DNA from: Thermoplasmatota archaeon
GTDB taxonomy: Archaea > Thermoplasmatota > Poseidoniia > Poseidoniales > Thalassarchaeaceae
Reading direction: 5' to 3'
DNA: 64,000 nt
NCBI GenBank assembly: GCA_030828405.1
Contig: JAURCP010000006.1
Span: 12,015-76,014 of the forward strand
Within the stretch, counting starts at the first letter, position 1, and the number at the start of each line of letters is the position of its first letter. This document shows, in pieces, positions 2,308 to 8,896 of the stretch. A program made the position numbers and the translations under genes. The notes under the pieces are model-generated. The model was not told where the DNA came from. It did no database searches and saw only the letters and a program-made list of their open reading frames with translations.

Positions 2308-3468
2308 GTGATTCTGAAGTGTATGCATCCGGAACAACTACGCAGGGTTATACTAAGGATTGTAACATCTCTTATGAATCTCATAATTGGCCCTTCAGGT
2401 GCTTGGTATGCTCTTGGATTAGAAGGTCTGTGCTTGTACATTATCGTTAATGTATTTACTAAATCTGTAGTTGCAGAGATTTCGGCTCTAAACGAAAAGA
2501 TATCTAGATTGGGATATAGAATATCTCCTATCTTTCTGATTTCTGCAGGTTTCTTGCCACTTATCTCATCCAACTGGTATACTTTTGTGATTCTTATACC
2601 TATTCTATTGGCAACATATGTGGGATTATTTTGGACAGGCTTTCATGGAATTAGAAAACTAAGAACTTTAAAAACTGAAAGAGAATCAGTAAGATCCTTT
2701 CAACATTATGAAATTGTAAGTACTTTATTGGCTGCTTTTTTAGTTTTATTTCTTAAACAAGTTGAGATGGTAAGTTATGCTGGATATATAGGCTCGATTC
2801 TAGCTTTCATTGCATTGGTAATTCCAATGAAAATAGGTGAAGGGACAATCAGAATATCAAGTGGCGATATGTTAAATCAAGAAGTAATACTTGCAAGATT
2901 AACCACAGGTTCTTTCGGAATCATTGGTTTTTCGACAGTTTGGTGTATGAGGATAATTGCTTTGGAATACGCAGGAATTTCAGGGATTGCGGGGATGGTG
3001 GCTCTTTCCAGTTTAGGAGGACATATTATATCTAATTTGAATGATAAAAAACTGAGGCCAGAATCGGCTGATAATAAAAACTGGATATGGGGGACTAACA
3101 TAGTAATAACTGGTATTCTTATTATGATTGGAAGTTTAATTTTAAGGCTTGAAGAATTTTTCCTAACTGGTTATCTGATTACAAGAGGGGGCACGTCTGG
3201 TATTTTACATCCTTTAGAAGTAAGAATTTCTGGAGAATTATTAATCGGAGATGGAGGTGAAATTGGGCTAAGAGAGAGAATAAAATTCAGAACACAAACA
3301 AAAATTATGTTTTTTTATATTATCTGCAATTATATGTTGTACAATATAATTGGAGAAATTAATCTTATTTTATTAGTCTTATTGCCTTTGATAACATCAT
3401 TATATTGTTGTAAGTTAAATTTGGAGATTATTGATTACTTAAAGACTCACCAACGGGTGCAAGGTTGA
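2308..3468 (+). CDS. Multi-pass membrane protein, possibly MFS-like transporter
   Basis: About 10-12 hydrophobic segments in two halves with a central hydrophilic loop; start could be ATG 2323. Confidence 0.55.
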   Translation: MILKCMHPEQLRRVILRIVTSLMNLIIGPSGAWYALGLEGLCLYIIVNVFTKSVVAEISALNEKISRLGYRISPIFLISAGFLPLISSNWYTFVILIPILLATYVGLFWTGFHGIRKLRTLKTERESVRSFQHYEIVSTLLAAFLVLFLKQVEMVSYAGYIGSILAFIALVIPMKIGEGTIRISSGDMLNQEVILARLTTGSFGIIGFSTVWCMRIIALEYAGISGIAGMVALSSLGGHIISNLNDKKLRPESADNKNWIWGTNIVITGILIMIGSLILRLEEFFLTGYLITRGGTSGILHPLEVRISGELLIGDGGEIGLRERIKFRTQTKIMFFYIICNYMLYNIIGEINLILLVLLPLITSLYCCKLNLEIIDYLKTHQRVQG

Positions 3469-5251
3469 GTTTAGATTTAGATAATTCCAATTTAATTTTA
3501 TTTTTTCTAGAATAAAGAAATAAACTCTGAGATTTAGGTTTATTTAATCCAGTAAATTCGCCAAACATTTCTCCTACTAGATGTAACTTAATTTTGTTAT
3601 TCTTACCCAATTCTTCAATATCTAAAATCCAACTAAATATCAAACTTCGAAAAATATTATCGTTACTTTTTGGATTCTCAAGAGCGGTATCTATCGAGAG
3701 TTCGGCTCTTAAAAGAAAATTATCAATCTCTGATAGGAATATTTTCATTTCTCCTAAAATTTCTTTAGATAATTCGTTTTCTAATTCAGAGCGATCTTCT
3801 GTCCAGATACTAGATCTGAATGTTGTATTCTGATAATTTTCTTTCCAGTTCTTATTTGTTATCCTTGAATCACTTAAGAATGAATTAATCTTCATGAAAA
3901 GTTGTGCTATTATTACTGATATATTGATTATTCCTGTGTAATTATTCTTACTTTCTTGAATATTTAACGCTGATTTAGCGAATCTTATTTCTTTTAATAC
4001 ACTCTCAATTATACTGCTAGTTTCATTTCGAACTATAGATTCCCTGAAACCTGAATCTTTAGGAGATGAACGATTGAAATCCAATCTGACAACTTTCATT
4101 GTTGTAGTTTTACAATAGAAATTTGTAAGATTCTTTGCTTCTGAACCAATGGTTGTAGATAAAAACGATTTAATAATCAGCCTCTTTTCTTCTTTTTTAT
4201 CTGTTTTTATCCTGTTTGAGGGGTTATTTTGATGTTCCAATAACACATCGAGACAATTCAGAATATATCCAGATTTCTTTTCTGATGACTCAAGATTTTT
4301 TCTTTCTTTCATTTCCATGTTTTCAAAATATTTATTTAAATCAGGATTTAGTGTCTTTCTAAAATCCCTAATTTTCTCTTCTATTTCATGTACTGGTTGA
4401 AGCCTAATTTTCTTATTTTTCCTCAATACCCATAATGACCACCAATAGTAGGCCTTGGCCCATACAGAATCATCTTCACGACATAATTCATCCATTTTTT
4501 TAATATAAGAAAATATATTCTTATAATCAGTTTCCCAATTATTACCAGATGGAATTAACCTTCTATTATTAGTCAAGTGGTATTGCATTAAAATTAACAT
4601 ATCAAGATGCTCAGTTTTTGTAGCACTATTATTGCGTATAGCTTTAAACCCATTTTTACTTTTCAAATTATCAAACTTAAACCAAGCAGCATCTAAAATT
4701 TTGTCAATTAATTCAAGAACTTCGGGGTTCTCAGAAAAACCCACACGAATTCTTCTGACCTGTTGTATTTTCGCTACAATCAGATATGTTGCGCAAATAT
4801 CTTTTGTTTCAACACCGTGTAATTTTTGTGTAATTTTCGATCTGAAATAATAACTATTGATTAAATCCTGTAAAGAATCTCTAGTGTAAGGATCATCTAT
4901 TTGCTGAAACCATTCATTCAAACATGGCCTTAATAATTTGTAACTACCCTCTGGATGGATTAAGTTATGTGATTGACCTATTAATCCCGATATATCACGT
5001 CTATTCCTTGAAGTGAAATTTATTATCAGCATTGAATCCTCAACACCGAAGTAATCTACCATGATTTTAAAGCTCTCTAAGGCTGATAATTTTGTTTTAG
5101 GTTCAGTGGTTAAATCTGAAAATGATTTATTATATTGCTCTGCAGCCTTAGCCCAATAAAGAATTAAATCTTTACTAAATTTATCTCTTTTCTCATTGTT
5201 AGAATAATGGAGATTACAGAAATCTTCACAACTTAACCTCTTGGACACCAT
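3428..5251 (-). CDS. Hypothetical 607-aa protein, predicted helical and Lys/Asn-rich
   Basis: Long ORF in very AT-rich DNA; TTTATAAG TATA-like box about 25 nt upstream; no motif recognised. Confidence 0.7.
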   Translation of the reverse strand: MVSKRLSCEDFCNLHYSNNEKRDKFSKDLILYWAKAAEQYNKSFSDLTTEPKTKLSALESFKIMVDYFGVEDSMLIINFTSRNRRDISGLIGQSHNLIHPEGSYKLLRPCLNEWFQQIDDPYTRDSLQDLINSYYFRSKITQKLHGVETKDICATYLIVAKIQQVRRIRVGFSENPEVLELIDKILDAAWFKFDNLKSKNGFKAIRNNSATKTEHLDMLILMQYHLTNNRRLIPSGNNWETDYKNIFSYIKKMDELCREDDSVWAKAYYWWSLWVLRKNKKIRLQPVHEIEEKIRDFRKTLNPDLNKYFENMEMKERKNLESSEKKSGYILNCLDVLLEHQNNPSNRIKTDKKEEKRLIIKSFLSTTIGSEAKNLTNFYCKTTTMKVVRLDFNRSSPKDSGFRESIVRNETSSIIESVLKEIRFAKSALNIQESKNNYTGIINISVIIAQLFMKINSFLSDSRITNKNWKENYQNTTFRSSIWTEDRSELENELSKEILGEMKIFLSEIDNFLLRAELSIDTALENPKSNDNIFRSLIFSWILDIEELGKNNKIKLHLVGEMFGEFTGLNKPKSQSLFLYSRKNKIKLELSKSKLNLAPVGESLSNQ

Positions 5252-5280: not shown

Positions 5281-5459
5281 TGTTAATATTTATCACCTCA
5301 AATTGAATAAAAATATAAAAAAGATTAATAATAAATAGTTATTTTTAGGCGATAAATATGCCATTTGAGAAATAATTGTTTAAAGTTGTTTTTATAAAAT
5401 TGAATAATATAAAAAATCATTGGGCATATATAGGGCCGTACCGTATTATAGTATGTAGT

Positions 5460-5617
5460 GCACCCCGGCATTCGTTTCACAAAAATGTGGGGGGAAGGGC
5501 AGAAACTGCTTCACCACTCCCATGAGTGGAGATGGAGTAGTTTATGACGCCAAATTGGTGAAAGAAAAAGGATAACGTAAAACTCTAGAGGGTGTAAGAA
5601 ATGACCACCTCTAGTTT
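5460..5617 (+). ncRNA. Putative structured leader RNA of the peptide/Ubl operon
   Basis: GC-richer patch in an AT-rich spacer; hairpin 5503-5543 (AAACTGCTTCA/TGGAGTAGTTT with 2 G-U pairs, inner CCACTC/GAGTGG) and hairpin 5585-5614 (CTAGAGG..CCTCTAG); ATATATA box near 5425. Confidence 0.4.
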
Positions 5618-5653
5618 CAATATGAATAATAAATTATAAAAAAAAAGGAGATA

Positions 5654-5746
5654 ATGAATATGGGATTTCTAAAATGGCTTTTACTCGGATCAGGTGCTGC
5701 TTACTTTGAACACACAGTAAGCGGTGACGATGACGATGATTGTTAA
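5654..5746 (+). CDS. Small peptide 1 (30 aa) MNMGFLKWLLLGSGAAYFEHTVSGDDDDDC
   Basis: Translated by hand; AAGGAG SD upstream; same architecture as peptides 2 and 3; alternative start ATG 5660. Confidence 0.65.
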   Translation: MNMGFLKWLLLGSGAAYFEHTVSGDDDDDC

Positions 5747-5840
5747 CGTAAAAATAAATAAAAAATGACTTTCTAAATGAATAGGAATTTAGAGTTCGCA
5801 TCTCGGACACAGAGATAAAAATACAAGGAGTGTGATAAAA

Positions 5841-5963
5841 ATGGGTTTGTTTAGAGCATTGTTCTGGACGGGAGCTACAATAGCGACTGGAGGATTGGCG
5901 CTTGCTTTGCTTCCAAACGACTGGGACGGTATAGACGGATATGACGGTGGCTGTGACGAATAA
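5841..5963 (+). CDS. Small peptide 2 (40 aa) MGLFRALFWTGATIATGGLALALLPNDWDGIDGYDGGCDE
   Basis: Translated by hand; ACAAGGAGTGTGATA SD block upstream; hydrophobic Gly-rich core and acidic tail. Confidence 0.7.
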   Translation: MGLFRALFWTGATIATGGLALALLPNDWDGIDGYDGGCDE

Positions 5964-6069
5964 TCGCCACATACACTGTTTCGCAAATGCGATGACTTGC
6001 AGGATGAATATGGATCTTGCCCCCGTGCCTCGGGTACAGAGGCGACACAAACAAGGAGCGTGATATGTT

Positions 6070-6186
6070 ATGGGATTGCTAAAAGCAATCGTAGGCGGAA
6101 CTGTTGGTTTGGTCGTGGGCACAATGACTTGTGCACCAATCACTGGAATGATTGGTGGTGCATTTGTAGCTCAAGACTGGGAATAG
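6070..6186 (+). CDS. Small peptide 3 (38 aa) MGLLKAIVGGTVGLVVGTMTCAPITGMIGGAFVAQDWE
   Basis: Translated by hand; ACAAGGAGCGTGATA SD block upstream (14/15 identical to that of peptide 2); glycine-zipper-like. Confidence 0.7.
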   Translation: MGLLKAIVGGTVGLVVGTMTCAPITGMIGGAFVAQDWE

Positions 6187-6281
6187 TTCAATGATTACAT
6201 GTGTAAATGTTGGCATGATAATGACATTTGAGAAGGTGCAAGACCTGGAAAAAAATATGAAGAAGGAAAGGAGGTAACGTA

Positions 6282-6491
6282 ATGGGAAACATAACGACAA
6301 AAGTCGAAATTGCTGACCATACGGGGCACACCACCGCTTTATTGACTCAGAGAGAGACTGTTGATCTCGTATCTGACAATGAGCGTTGGGTTTTCGCTGG
6401 AGGACAAATGATTGAGCCAGAAGAATTGGCTGAAGCAGATTGGTCTACAGTTGGAACCGTGAGAGTGATGCCGCGTATTGTGTTCGGTTGA
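6282..6491 (+). CDS. Ubiquitin-like (beta-grasp, SAMP/ThiS-like) small protein ending in Gly
   Basis: 69 aa, strong GGAGGT SD, beta-grasp-like pattern (WVFAGGQMI...TVRVMPRIVFG), C-terminal Gly; directly upstream of JAB and E1 genes. Confidence 0.7.
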   Translation: MGNITTKVEIADHTGHTTALLTQRETVDLVSDNERWVFAGGQMIEPEELAEADWSTVGTVRVMPRIVFG

Positions 6492-6583
6492 TTGGCTGAT
6501 TATTTGCTCGAAAGAGCCCGGATTAACGTAAGTCAAGATAGGGTATACTCTATGTTGATGCAAAATAAAAAGGAGAAAATAAA

Positions 6584-7087
6584 ATGGAAACAAAACAAAT
6601 AAATAATGAAAAAATAATAGAAAATGAAATAGATTGGAAACAACACATACGAGATGTGCATAATGATATGGCAGATGATATAGAATATCTCTTCCCTAAC
6701 AATTCCACTGAAGCCTTTATGACAGCAATATGGAAAATGTCTGTTGACTTATTAGAAAGGATAGAAGTGATGGTCATCGTCGATAATAAAGATGATTTGT
6801 ATATCAGTAGCGGCACACCATCGTTAGTCTCGTTCAAAGATCATGAGGATGAATTAAAAATTGGAGATAAAATGAAGTTGCCACTGAAATGTTGCATCCA
6901 TACACACCCTTCAGGTAAAGCATACTTTAGCGATACTGATTGGAATACAATTAACACATGGAAGAGCGATATTGAATCATGCATTGTACTAGGTAAAAAT
7001 GAATATTTAGCATATAATCCTAAATCTAAATTAGCTAAAATGGTTCACTATGGGCTTCTTGAGAACAATTTGAGAGGTGAGCAATAA
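6584..7087 (+). CDS. JAB/JAMM (MPN+) metallopeptidase
   Basis: Intact E...HxH-x7-S-x2-D motif: IEVMV...HTHPSGKAYFSDTD. Confidence 0.88.
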   Translation: METKQINNEKIIENEIDWKQHIRDVHNDMADDIEYLFPNNSTEAFMTAIWKMSVDLLERIEVMVIVDNKDDLYISSGTPSLVSFKDHEDELKIGDKMKLPLKCCIHTHPSGKAYFSDTDWNTINTWKSDIESCIVLGKNEYLAYNPKSKLAKMVHYGLLENNLRGEQ

Positions 7088-7311: not shown

Positions 7312-8076
7312 ATGGATATTAACGAAGAAGAATATACGCCAGAGAGAAAGAATGGAATTTTCAGATTTAGTATTCCTAATTTAGATGCACACAATAAATC
7401 ACTTGAATGGATTGAGTCTGAGAGGAAAAGAATGGGGGCGGAAATTGATTGTATGTTAGAGGATGGATACGACTCAAGTAGGAAATGTCATATTTATGTC
7501 AATGGGAGAGAGTCTGGAATTAATTATAGATTGACATTATCTTTTGAATCTAAAATTGCAAATCTATTATCTAAAAGAATTAATGAAGTTGAATTGAGTG
7601 ATAGAAATCTAAAATCAATTTTATTCACATTTCAAAAATTGATTCATTTCGAAACACATTGGTATGATCATTCGGAAGGGCGCTGGCAGCATATTTGCTT
7701 AGATGTGAAACCTTCTGTTAATCATCCATTTTGGCCAGGAGACCATATTGTTTCTGTAATGAATTGTTTGTCTGAAGACATGACTTCAGTACTTGATAGA
7801 GATATGAAAACTTTAAGAAAAGCAATGACTAAAGCACTTGTAGTCAGTTGGTTCCAAGGCGATAATTCAGATATTATGGGATTTAATAAGGTAAGTCAAT
7901 ATGTAGAGTGGTTAATTCAATTAGAAGAAACAGATAGTGAATTTTCATTTGCAAATAAGAGAGATTTGATTTTAAAAAATATAAAAAATGATTGGGGATA
8001 TTGGGTAGAATCACAAAAAACAAAGCAAATGAAGTTATATGAAAACGTGTTTTCTAGTTTGGAGGAATATCAATGA
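7312..8076 (+). CDS. Hypothetical protein, candidate E2-equivalent
   Basis: Lies between JAB and E1 and abuts its neighbours; HICLD (Cys129) resembles the E2 ICL active-site motif; function inferred. Confidence 0.45.
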   Translation: MDINEEEYTPERKNGIFRFSIPNLDAHNKSLEWIESERKRMGAEIDCMLEDGYDSSRKCHIYVNGRESGINYRLTLSFESKIANLLSKRINEVELSDRNLKSILFTFQKLIHFETHWYDHSEGRWQHICLDVKPSVNHPFWPGDHIVSVMNCLSEDMTSVLDRDMKTLRKAMTKALVVSWFQGDNSDIMGFNKVSQYVEWLIQLEETDSEFSFANKRDLILKNIKNDWGYWVESQKTKQMKLYENVFSSLEEYQ

Positions 8077-8744
8077 AAGATGTACTGGATATAGCAATAG
8101 TTGGAGTTGGAGGGATTGGTTCGAACCTCGCATCATTAATTGTGCCATCTCTATCTCAAGGAGATTTATCACAGAGATTTTCAAAAATAAATATCAATCT
8201 ATATGATTCAGATGAAGTCGAAGAAGAAAATATATTTCATCAGAGATTTAATCAATCAAATATCGGTGAAACAAAAGTTTTGGCTACAAAGAAAAACTTA
8301 TCATCTTTTGAGCATGATAAATTAGAAATCGTCCCACATGGAAAGGATGTTCGAGAGAAAGAAGATATTGAAGATAATGACCTAATAGTGGTTTGTGTAG
8401 ATTCTTCAGATGCTAGGATAGTAGTTCATTCAACAAACTCAAAATGGTTAGATCTAAGATGTAGAGGAGATAATTTCATGAGTATAGATTATACTACAAA
8501 GAAAAATATTATCAAATCAATTACCGATATCGACCAAAAACCCGGTTCTTGTCAGTATGAGGGAGCTTTAGAATCAGGTAATATTCAATTTGGTTTCATG
8601 TACGCTGCATCCTTTGGGGCTCAATGGGTGATACAAAACCTTAGAGGAGAAAATGAAGGAAATAATGTGTTGATGCCTTATCCAAGATCAGAAAGTATAA
8701 CATTTGGGACATTAGGTAATTTTGAGAAAGAGGAGGGAAGTTAA
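8073..8744 (+). CDS. ThiF/MoeB/E1-like adenylyltransferase
   Basis: GVGGIGS, DSDEVEEENIFHQ, KV, VCVDS motifs; GSCQ candidate catalytic Cys; no CxxC zinc motifs. Confidence 0.9.
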   Translation: MKDVLDIAIVGVGGIGSNLASLIVPSLSQGDLSQRFSKININLYDSDEVEEENIFHQRFNQSNIGETKVLATKKNLSSFEHDKLEIVPHGKDVREKEDIEDNDLIVVCVDSSDARIVVHSTNSKWLDLRCRGDNFMSIDYTTKKNIIKSITDIDQKPGSCQYEGALESGNIQFGFMYAASFGAQWVIQNLRGENEGNNVLMPYPRSESITFGTLGNFEKEEGS

Positions 8745-8896
8745 TGTCTTGGATAGTTAGGTGTGCATTTTGTGATGAGAAAATTACTATTGGTAAAAAT
8801 CAGTTCAAGAAAGACAAAAATCCATTAACTGAAGAAAGTGAATATGTATGTGCTCATTGTTATCAATCTTTTATTGGCGATCTAGACTCTTATTAA
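8744..8896 (+). CDS. 50-aa zinc-finger protein (CAFC-x25-CAHC), not in ORF track
   Basis: MSWIVRCAFCDEKITIGKNQFKKDKNPLTEESEYVCAHCYQSFIGDLDSY; TAATG overlap with the E1 stop; GGAGG SD. Confidence 0.75.
   Translation: MSWIVRCAFCDEKITIGKNQFKKDKNPLTEESEYVCAHCYQSFIGDLDSY

Follow-up and report, generated by a model that had tools for sequence, protein, structure and literature searches.

Three micropeptide genes with predicted structured RNA leaders head a ubiquitin-like operon in a marine archaeon

In a 64,000-nucleotide stretch of DNA (the window) from a Thermoplasmatota archaeon of the Poseidoniales (contig JAURCP010000006.1, positions 12,015 to 76,014 of the forward strand), three short open reading frames (ORF1, ORF2 and ORF3) stand in a row ahead of genes for a ubiquitin-like protein (Ubl), a JAB peptidase and a ThiF-family E1 enzyme. 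All three are genuine peptide genes, conserved and under purifying selection, and by sequence comparison they are separate families with no demonstrable paralogy. The spacers before ORF2, ORF3 and the Ubl gene carry predicted pseudoknots that compensatory base changes support. The reading that we tentatively favour, at somewhat less than an even chance, is that the row consists of unrelated micropeptide genes, swappable cassettes with structured RNA leaders likely setting translation, and that the operon it heads is probably antiviral.

Marine Group II, to which this host belongs, is an abundant group of uncultured archaea for which hardly any defence systems or cis-regulatory RNAs have been described. 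In this study, we examine the coding status and relatedness of the three peptides, the RNA elements in the spacers of the island, and the occurrence of both in other archaeal genomes, viral contigs and RNA libraries.

Results

Coding evidence and peptide features

The three ORFs lie where a first-pass annotation of the window had placed them (Table 1), each with an AAGGAG Shine-Dalgarno (SD) sequence on its 5' side, one Cys and an acidic C-terminal end, and the 15-nucleotide blocks that it had described as repeated are found at 5823 and 6051. ORF1 is 28 residues long if started at the ATG at 5660. Starts of the form MG[FLI][LFI][KR] occur 19 times in the 1.4-Mb genome and only these three lie behind an SD, which argues that the ORFs are not chance. 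Codon-level conservation, set beforehand as a test of the claim, is present throughout: the ratio of nonsynonymous to synonymous polymorphism (pN/pS) is 0.23 for ORF2 (36 alleles), 0.17 for ORF3 (13 alleles) and 0.22 for ORF1 (only three alleles), with codon third positions the most variable. In several lineages ATA starts behind a strong SD recur in ORF2, ORF3 and Ubl, with purifying selection kept (L169-L178, L181, L185, L192, L031 and L165-L168); the eight ATA-start ORF2 alleles have a pN/pS of 0.14.

The description of the peptides as paralog-like was not borne out. Alignment scores measured against 2000 shuffles gave pairwise p values of 0.99, 0.11 and 0.043, all pairs had p of at least 0.09 once the first six residues were dropped, and profile searches with ORF2 and ORF3 returned separate families. 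The shared GxxxG-rich core that had been described holds for ORF3 only; ORF1 has no GxxxG, and the single one of ORF2 lies in its acidic tail. A Gly-zipper profile matched ORF3 at E 0.7, below cut-off. The best 19-residue hydropathy of ORF2 and ORF3 is 1.6-1.7, as for small hydrophobic membrane peptides, and that of ORF1 is 0.69, too weakly hydrophobic and short for a membrane span. The shared single Cys likewise survives in part, being invariant in all six aligned ORF3 alleles and kept in 14 of 41 ORF2 lineage groups. ORF3 never varies at Gly2, and in ORF2, where Lys is not conserved, that glycine is kept at 90% or more.

Distribution and genomic settings

Relatives of ORF2 carry titles naming Thermoplasmatota, Thalassarchaeaceae and Poseidoniales. 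A single-sequence search gave 40 clusters, a profile search listed 108 proteins at E up to 10 (with a weak tail), and 80 of 84 metagenome loci found were kept; locus L153, which could not be oriented automatically, was left out of the 96-locus set. The family combines two very different hydrophobic segments with one common acidic tail, and it has no strong match in the 199 genomes of the sister family. For ORF3, 15 representatives at E up to 0.001 include 14 evident family members. In the ESM Atlas, ORF2 returned only its own cluster and ORF3 a value of 0.75, a lead only. Strains differ in the peptide that fills the first slot, ORF1 being replaced in genome G007 and others. Other micropeptide families occur in the same islands (L144, L148, L151, L190, L212, L228, L293, L301), namely a GGP-containing glycine zipper ending QHxx, WPIG peptides of 26-29 residues and a 31-residue hydrophobic peptide.

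The ORF2 and ORF3 families recur, and of the 30 best Ubl loci 28 showed nothing of the array within the 1.5 kb, at most, that lies upstream, a few of these loci being incomplete. The peptides are dispensable to Ubl loci. The proposed tie to Ubl conjugation stands by association, since 41 of 43 ORF2 lineage groups lie beside Ubl-type systems, either the Ubl/JAB/E1 type of island or an unrelated E1-E2-Cdc48 operon; it does not stand for Lys and Cys as attachment sites. With neither residue conserved in ORF2, only the N-terminal amine is plausible for conjugation. The peptides could accordingly be conjugation substrates or membrane anchors, the free Gly2 amine being ligated to the Ubl C-terminus after Met removal and released by JAB. 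This account is compatible with the cassette reading. We nonetheless judge it unlikely, if well worth keeping in view: besides the unconserved Lys and Cys, most Ubl loci lack the peptides (of 401 genomes in the order, 207 have Ubl and 11 a strong ORF2 match), and at several loci ORF2 lies in the arm that holds the polymerase, where its transcription runs away from Ubl.

Far less probable still is the suggestion that the peptides are precursors of ribosomally synthesized and post-translationally modified peptides (RiPPs), which the ThiF enzyme would modify and JAB would trim, in the manner of MccA and MccB. The short ORFs do share their cluster with a ThiF-type adenylase, and the acidic tail of ORF2 is constant behind very different hydrophobic regions. 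The operon, however, already holds a cognate Gly-ended Ubl substrate, alleles differ in their C-terminal residues (Cys, Glu, Asp or Lys), the peptides have no leader/core split, and the maps showed neither a transporter nor an immunity gene.

The second operon, which is eukaryote-like and found in Marine Group II (L309 in G064:C36, L310 in G268:C80, L306 and L307 in G303), encodes a large ThiF E1, an E2-fold protein with an invariant Cys, a Cys-rich protein of 130 residues, Cdc48 and SAP-AAA; an E2 query for it matched 8 of 226 genomes.

Pseudoknots in the spacers

Comparison with G007 revealed that the repeated 15-nucleotide block is the tail of a longer element, motif A, consisting of UGACUU, a hairpin of 5-7 bp, a pseudoknot, an A-rich linker and the SD. 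The pseudoknot has helices of 4 bp and 5 bp, a first loop of two bases starting with G, and a last loop of three bases. Across 18 copies, 94% of cells are paired, and 9 of 12 pairs have changed on both sides. The covariation score was reached by none of 500 shuffles, and slid registers pair at 21-45%. All these figures are inflated, the copies being kin and the structure having been derived from them. Compensatory changes occur in 3/4 and 4/5 pairs of the crossing helices, and the outer pseudoknot pair is seen as G-C, A-U, U-A and C-G. Independent copies found later keep the fold and add new pair types.

A descriptor of motif A gave 19 distinct matches in 836 kb of loci, 17 of them directly 5' of a peptide gene, and four matches in genome G000, two of them true. 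The motif precedes ORF3 in eight of nine groups, with a variant in the ninth, and ORF2 in 7/40 groups; it also leads other peptides and, in one lineage (L181/L185), Ubl. It is found in three genera (G000/G007, G303 and G353). A loose pattern, run over the 226 genomes of the family, did no better than background, and a covariance model picked out strong copies in just 2 of 151, having missed or not sampled the G303 and G353 copies. A role of UGACUU in an upstream ORF or in readthrough was rejected on inconsistent reading frames among alleles, and a terminator role on a 3' flank that is A-rich, not U-rich.

Motif B, the leader of the Ubl gene, has a pseudoknot unlike that of motif A; it is 99% paired over 11 host copies (7/12 pairs compensatory) and 96% paired in one structure over 22 host and viral copies (9/14 pairs compensatory), with compensatory changes in 3/4 and 3/5 pairs of its crossing helices. 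The elements include invariant unpaired bases and a T-loop-like hairpin. Motifs A and B together make at least two well-supported predicted new pseudoknot families of about 50 nucleotides each. A third element, motif C, lies 3' of Ubl in many genomes and 5' of ORF1 in the window; the motif C-like element before ORF1, in the window and L162, folds weakly by itself (z -1.6). In several other genera Ubl is led by motif D, whose compact pseudoknot carries an AGAAC tail (17 distinct copies, at loci including L004, L007, L010, L023, L027, L059, L146 and L168). For motifs C and D, covariation was assessed only by eye. The same slot can hold different motifs: B, A or D 5' of Ubl, and C or a variant of B 3' of it.

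The leader hairpin upstream of the array has a fold z of -4.6, equalled by 0/200 shuffles, and is kept in 4/4 aligned alleles, all four of which fit a kink-turn by eye, judged against the definition in the available text of PMC6298567. For motif A together with its SD, a kink-turn is complete only in ORF3-type copies. Searches with Rfam 15 at the gathering threshold gave no match in 20 island loci and 20 of the 45 viral loci described below; in a scan of the window the best E was 0.37, with no family match.

Motif B in viral contigs

The exact motif B pattern matched 45 viral contigs, of which 43 keep both stems with an SD behind, in 21 distinct variants; the contrast for this search is an informal one, the unstructured matches to motif A and C patterns. 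At the 14 viral loci mapped, the gene on the 5' side of the motif encodes about 400 residues or is a small hydrophobic ORF, and those that the motif leads are a small gene, an ATPase gene and one of clamp size. The longer upstream gene is a putative SSB (a protein that binds single-stranded DNA), with no family match; family matches to a clamp loader, a Sak4-like (Sak4/RadA-like) ATPase and a processivity factor come from L339 only. The magrovirus replication module is described, in the available text of PMC5434244, as clamp loader, clamp, RadA-like ATPase and SSB, and three of these four components are supported in L339. Judged from this gene set the contigs would be magrovirus-type, and their viruses likely infect these archaea; they gave no INPHARED match. 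In some of the contigs (L323, L325, L330, L361, L363) a hydrophobic ORF of 50-51 residues lies directly 5' of motif B.

Three pattern scans for motif A in viruses gave chance matches only, exact patterns being prone to miss diverged copies; L382 and L402 carry a hairpin-hairpin element 5' of an SD that is motif A-like and fails the pseudoknot test. Motif C patterns gave at least 120 viral matches, seven with a hairpin and none convincing.

These contigs bear on a further alternative, in which the island would be a domesticated piece of an early operon from a virus or satellite, its RNAs operators retained from the virus and its peptides factors for superinfection exclusion or host takeover. 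Motif B in viral contigs is what such an origin would leave, as are the patchy distribution and the T7-type polymerase with promoter-like repeats of G007. That genome has four such repeats at L031:10768-10978, between polymerase and operon, which may resemble phage polymerase promoters. Set against these, viral contigs contain no true relative of ORF2 (two weak false matches), of Ubl (one partial 13-residue match only) or of the polymerase (by a single-sequence word search, which reaches close relatives only), and no integrase, capsid or replication genes were seen in the contigs mapped. We regard this origin as rather improbable, a step below the conjugation account.

Less likely again, and offered as speculation, is that a translational operator of the host island was taken from the viruses that infect it, so that infection itself would turn on Ubl and the membrane peptides. 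In this picture, a viral replication protein with motif B in viral mRNA as its binding site would recognise the host copy as well, motif A would be a second, host-made switch, and the private T7-type polymerase would act as amplifier in relatives. If true, this would be an RNA tripwire for archaeal antiviral defence.

Presence in RNA libraries

The window stretch appears in 24 listed runs from 11 studies, 21 of the runs being on record as RNA. Contigs of four studies partly cover the array, and RNA-library contigs run through the motif A copies (three studies) and motif B (one study). This coverage is presence in RNA libraries, short of proof for transcription or translation, and contig ends can neither rank genes nor reveal cut sites; that one contig begins at 5761 is a weak hint only.

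Layout of the island

Features of the island are collected in Table 1. The 69-residue protein, which has no Pfam or PHROG match, is labelled Ubl from its gene context and C-terminus. In relatives the Ubl/JAB/E1 island often includes a T7-type RNA polymerase, which in G007 occupies the left-arm site; the window island has none, and the 607-residue ORF, considered as a decayed polymerase, has no similarity to the T7-type enzyme. A possible promoter, TATA-type or phage-type, heads the structured leader at 5419-5435, and L162, L166 and L167 keep it with two mismatches. Some strains (L163, L166, L172, L177) have a MORN-repeat gene of 121 residues between Ubl and JAB; alongside this insertion, L177 has a partial duplicate of motif C 5' of JAB. 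In G007, an SD-led ORF of 22 residues with an acidic end lies 3' of E1 (L031:6429-6497, minus strand), a position taken in the window by a 51-residue zinc ribbon (8741-8896).

Table 1. Features of the micropeptide array and Ubl island, in window coordinates
Feature	Position	Strand	Family match
Leader hairpin, predicted kink-turn (3-nt bulge and tandem G.A pairs; possible L7Ae site)	5498..5551	+	
Motif C-like element (GGA-N-ACGUAA, then hairpin), 5' of ORF1	5570..5620	+	
ORF1, 28-30 aa, short amphipathic N-terminus, poly-Asp tail, narrow distribution	5654..5746	+	
Motif A copy 1: UGACUU, hairpin, predicted H-type pseudoknot, A-rich linker to SD	5766..5816	+	
ORF2, 40 aa, predicted to cross the membrane once, acidic DGIDG tail conserved; belongs to a large Marine Group II family	5841..5963	+	
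Motif A copy 2; outer pseudoknot pair mismatched in window allele	5993..6043	+	
ORF3, 38 aa, glycine-zipper-like hydrophobic peptide, invariant Cys-x-Pro	6070..6186	+	
Motif B: predicted H-type pseudoknot and T-loop-like hairpin, leader of Ubl gene	6198..6246	+	
Ubl, 69 aa, C-terminal single Gly; GG in relatives	6282..6491	+	
Motif C (hairpin, CGGA-N-ACGUAAG, hairpin), widespread 3' of Ubl genes	6506..6561	+	
JAB peptidase	6584..7087	+	Prok-JAB E 2e-5, slightly short of curated cut-off
Island genes of 74 aa and 254 aa	7087..8076	+	
Small ThiF-family E1	8073..8744	+	ThiF E 2e-13
Island left arm: 386-aa membrane protein (+), 607-aa protein (-)	2308..5251		

Discussion

Leader function, RNA structure and peptide translation are here read from sequence. 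Each micropeptide gene with its RNA leader is likely a swappable cassette, and the cluster likely puts small membrane peptides and the Ubl system under virus-style translational control. The leaders end 7-30 nucleotides 5' of an SD and would act in cis upon it, as operators or ribosome-loading sites. The conserved UGACUU, which occurs together with AAGGA in 18 of 24 motif A copies, could base-pair, by way of tandem G.A pairs, with AAGGA in the SD. The ATA starts of several motif-led genes, still conserved, hint at leader-aided translation. ORF2 and ORF3 would insert in the membrane with the basic end inside and the acidic tail outside, and may be anchors for the Ubl cascade or its effectors. 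In relatives, the private T7-type polymerase would make the island transcript.

The spacer RNAs could instead be processing or stabilising elements, either self-cleaving ribozymes of new classes or blocks to a 5'-3' exonuclease, that cut a long transcript into single-gene units. Such elements would account for unrelated folds that are interchangeable between genes, and for the invariant unpaired bases and the T-loop-like hairpin. The folds match no Rfam ribozyme, though, RNA-library contigs cross motifs A and B (which DNA or uncleaved precursor could explain), and motif D lies about 25 nucleotides behind TATA-like boxes, by eye, and so probably at the transcript 5' end. Because unrelated folds occupy the same slot ahead of an SD, and viral copies do likewise, we provisionally prefer cis-acting translational leaders, short of even confidence, and consider ribozymes or nuclease blocks unlikely, on a level with the conjugation account.

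Several observations weigh against translational leaders and an antiviral island. The motif sequences are kin, so that covariation counts overstate independence. In 33 of 40 groups ORF2 has no motif A and is translationally coupled instead, which means that the leader is not required. UGACUU-SD pairing shows no compensatory change, fails in 6 of the 24 copies and is absent from minimum-energy folds, and by energy the motif A spacers fold no better than shuffles (z -1.0 and -1.6, from a program that ignores pseudoknots). Genome G000 has no polymerase in an assembly that is 81% complete. Finally, the island is probably antiviral defence purely by analogy, and the available text of PMC11601596 reports no demonstrated antiphage effect for Bub operons.

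Pseudoknot families of about 50 nucleotides, one of them common to host and virus, are directly makeable and assayable. A 40-residue family kept by two unrelated archaeal Ubl systems offers a handle on their targets or site of action.

Relation to known systems

Among open-access papers, none was found on Marine Group II pseudoknots with small proteins, and none joining RAGATH RNAs with ubiquitin, where unnamed Weinberg/Roth motifs could overlap ours. A single-subunit polymerase in Marine Group II was not found within the same coverage, and Poseidoniales and magrovirus go unmentioned among the matches listed.

The precursor of microcin C-type peptides ends in a conserved Asn and is accompanied by exporter and immunity genes; in contrast, the island peptides end in Cys, Glu, Asp or Lys, with no exporter or immunity genes in the maps. 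Phage T4 uses translational operators such as the leader pseudoknot of gene 32. Motif B resembles that leader in that both are compact pseudoknots placed before an SD in the replication operon of a virus, and departs from it in its different fold, its added T-loop hairpin and its use by a host island. The type I toxin mRNA tisB reportedly has a pseudoknot leader. The available text on timP, another type I toxin mRNA (PMC11228461), describes a small hydrophobic peptide and a pseudoknot leader bearing on translation. Like these, the array joins small hydrophobic peptides to pseudoknot leaders; unlike them, as far as described there, it is archaeal and polycistronic, with a pseudoknot 7-30 nucleotides from the SD, acidic tails and a Ubl link.

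In archaeal l7ae leaders, as partly set out in PMC6298567, L7Ae acts on a kink-turn as a translational switch. The features that would be shared are a bulge and tandem G.A pairs near or including the SD, and the differences are that the predicted version here lies inside a multi-helix element and that the C-helix is complete only in some copies. Twister and hammerhead ribozymes are described in shared gene contexts (PMC6765202, available text), where unrelated RNA folds are interchangeable in one gene context as they are here; the spacer RNAs, unlike those, match no catalogued class, and cleavage by them is only hypothetical.

With Bub and Bil operons (PMC11601596, available text) the island shares Ubl, JAB, E1, a candidate E2 and a variable setting. 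It differs from Bub (6E) in that no BubE/DUF6527 (PF20137) match was found among the window and island proteins scanned, a search that could miss diverged forms, and from Bil in having no multi-domain IAD-AAD-CYS E1, the window E1 being one ThiF domain of 223 residues. The micropeptides, structured spacers and T7-type polymerase of the island set it apart from both, to the extent of those descriptions. The parts are each of a known kind, namely a pseudoknot leader, a small membrane protein and a Ubl island; the RNA and peptide families, and their combination, appear new as far as the searches reach.
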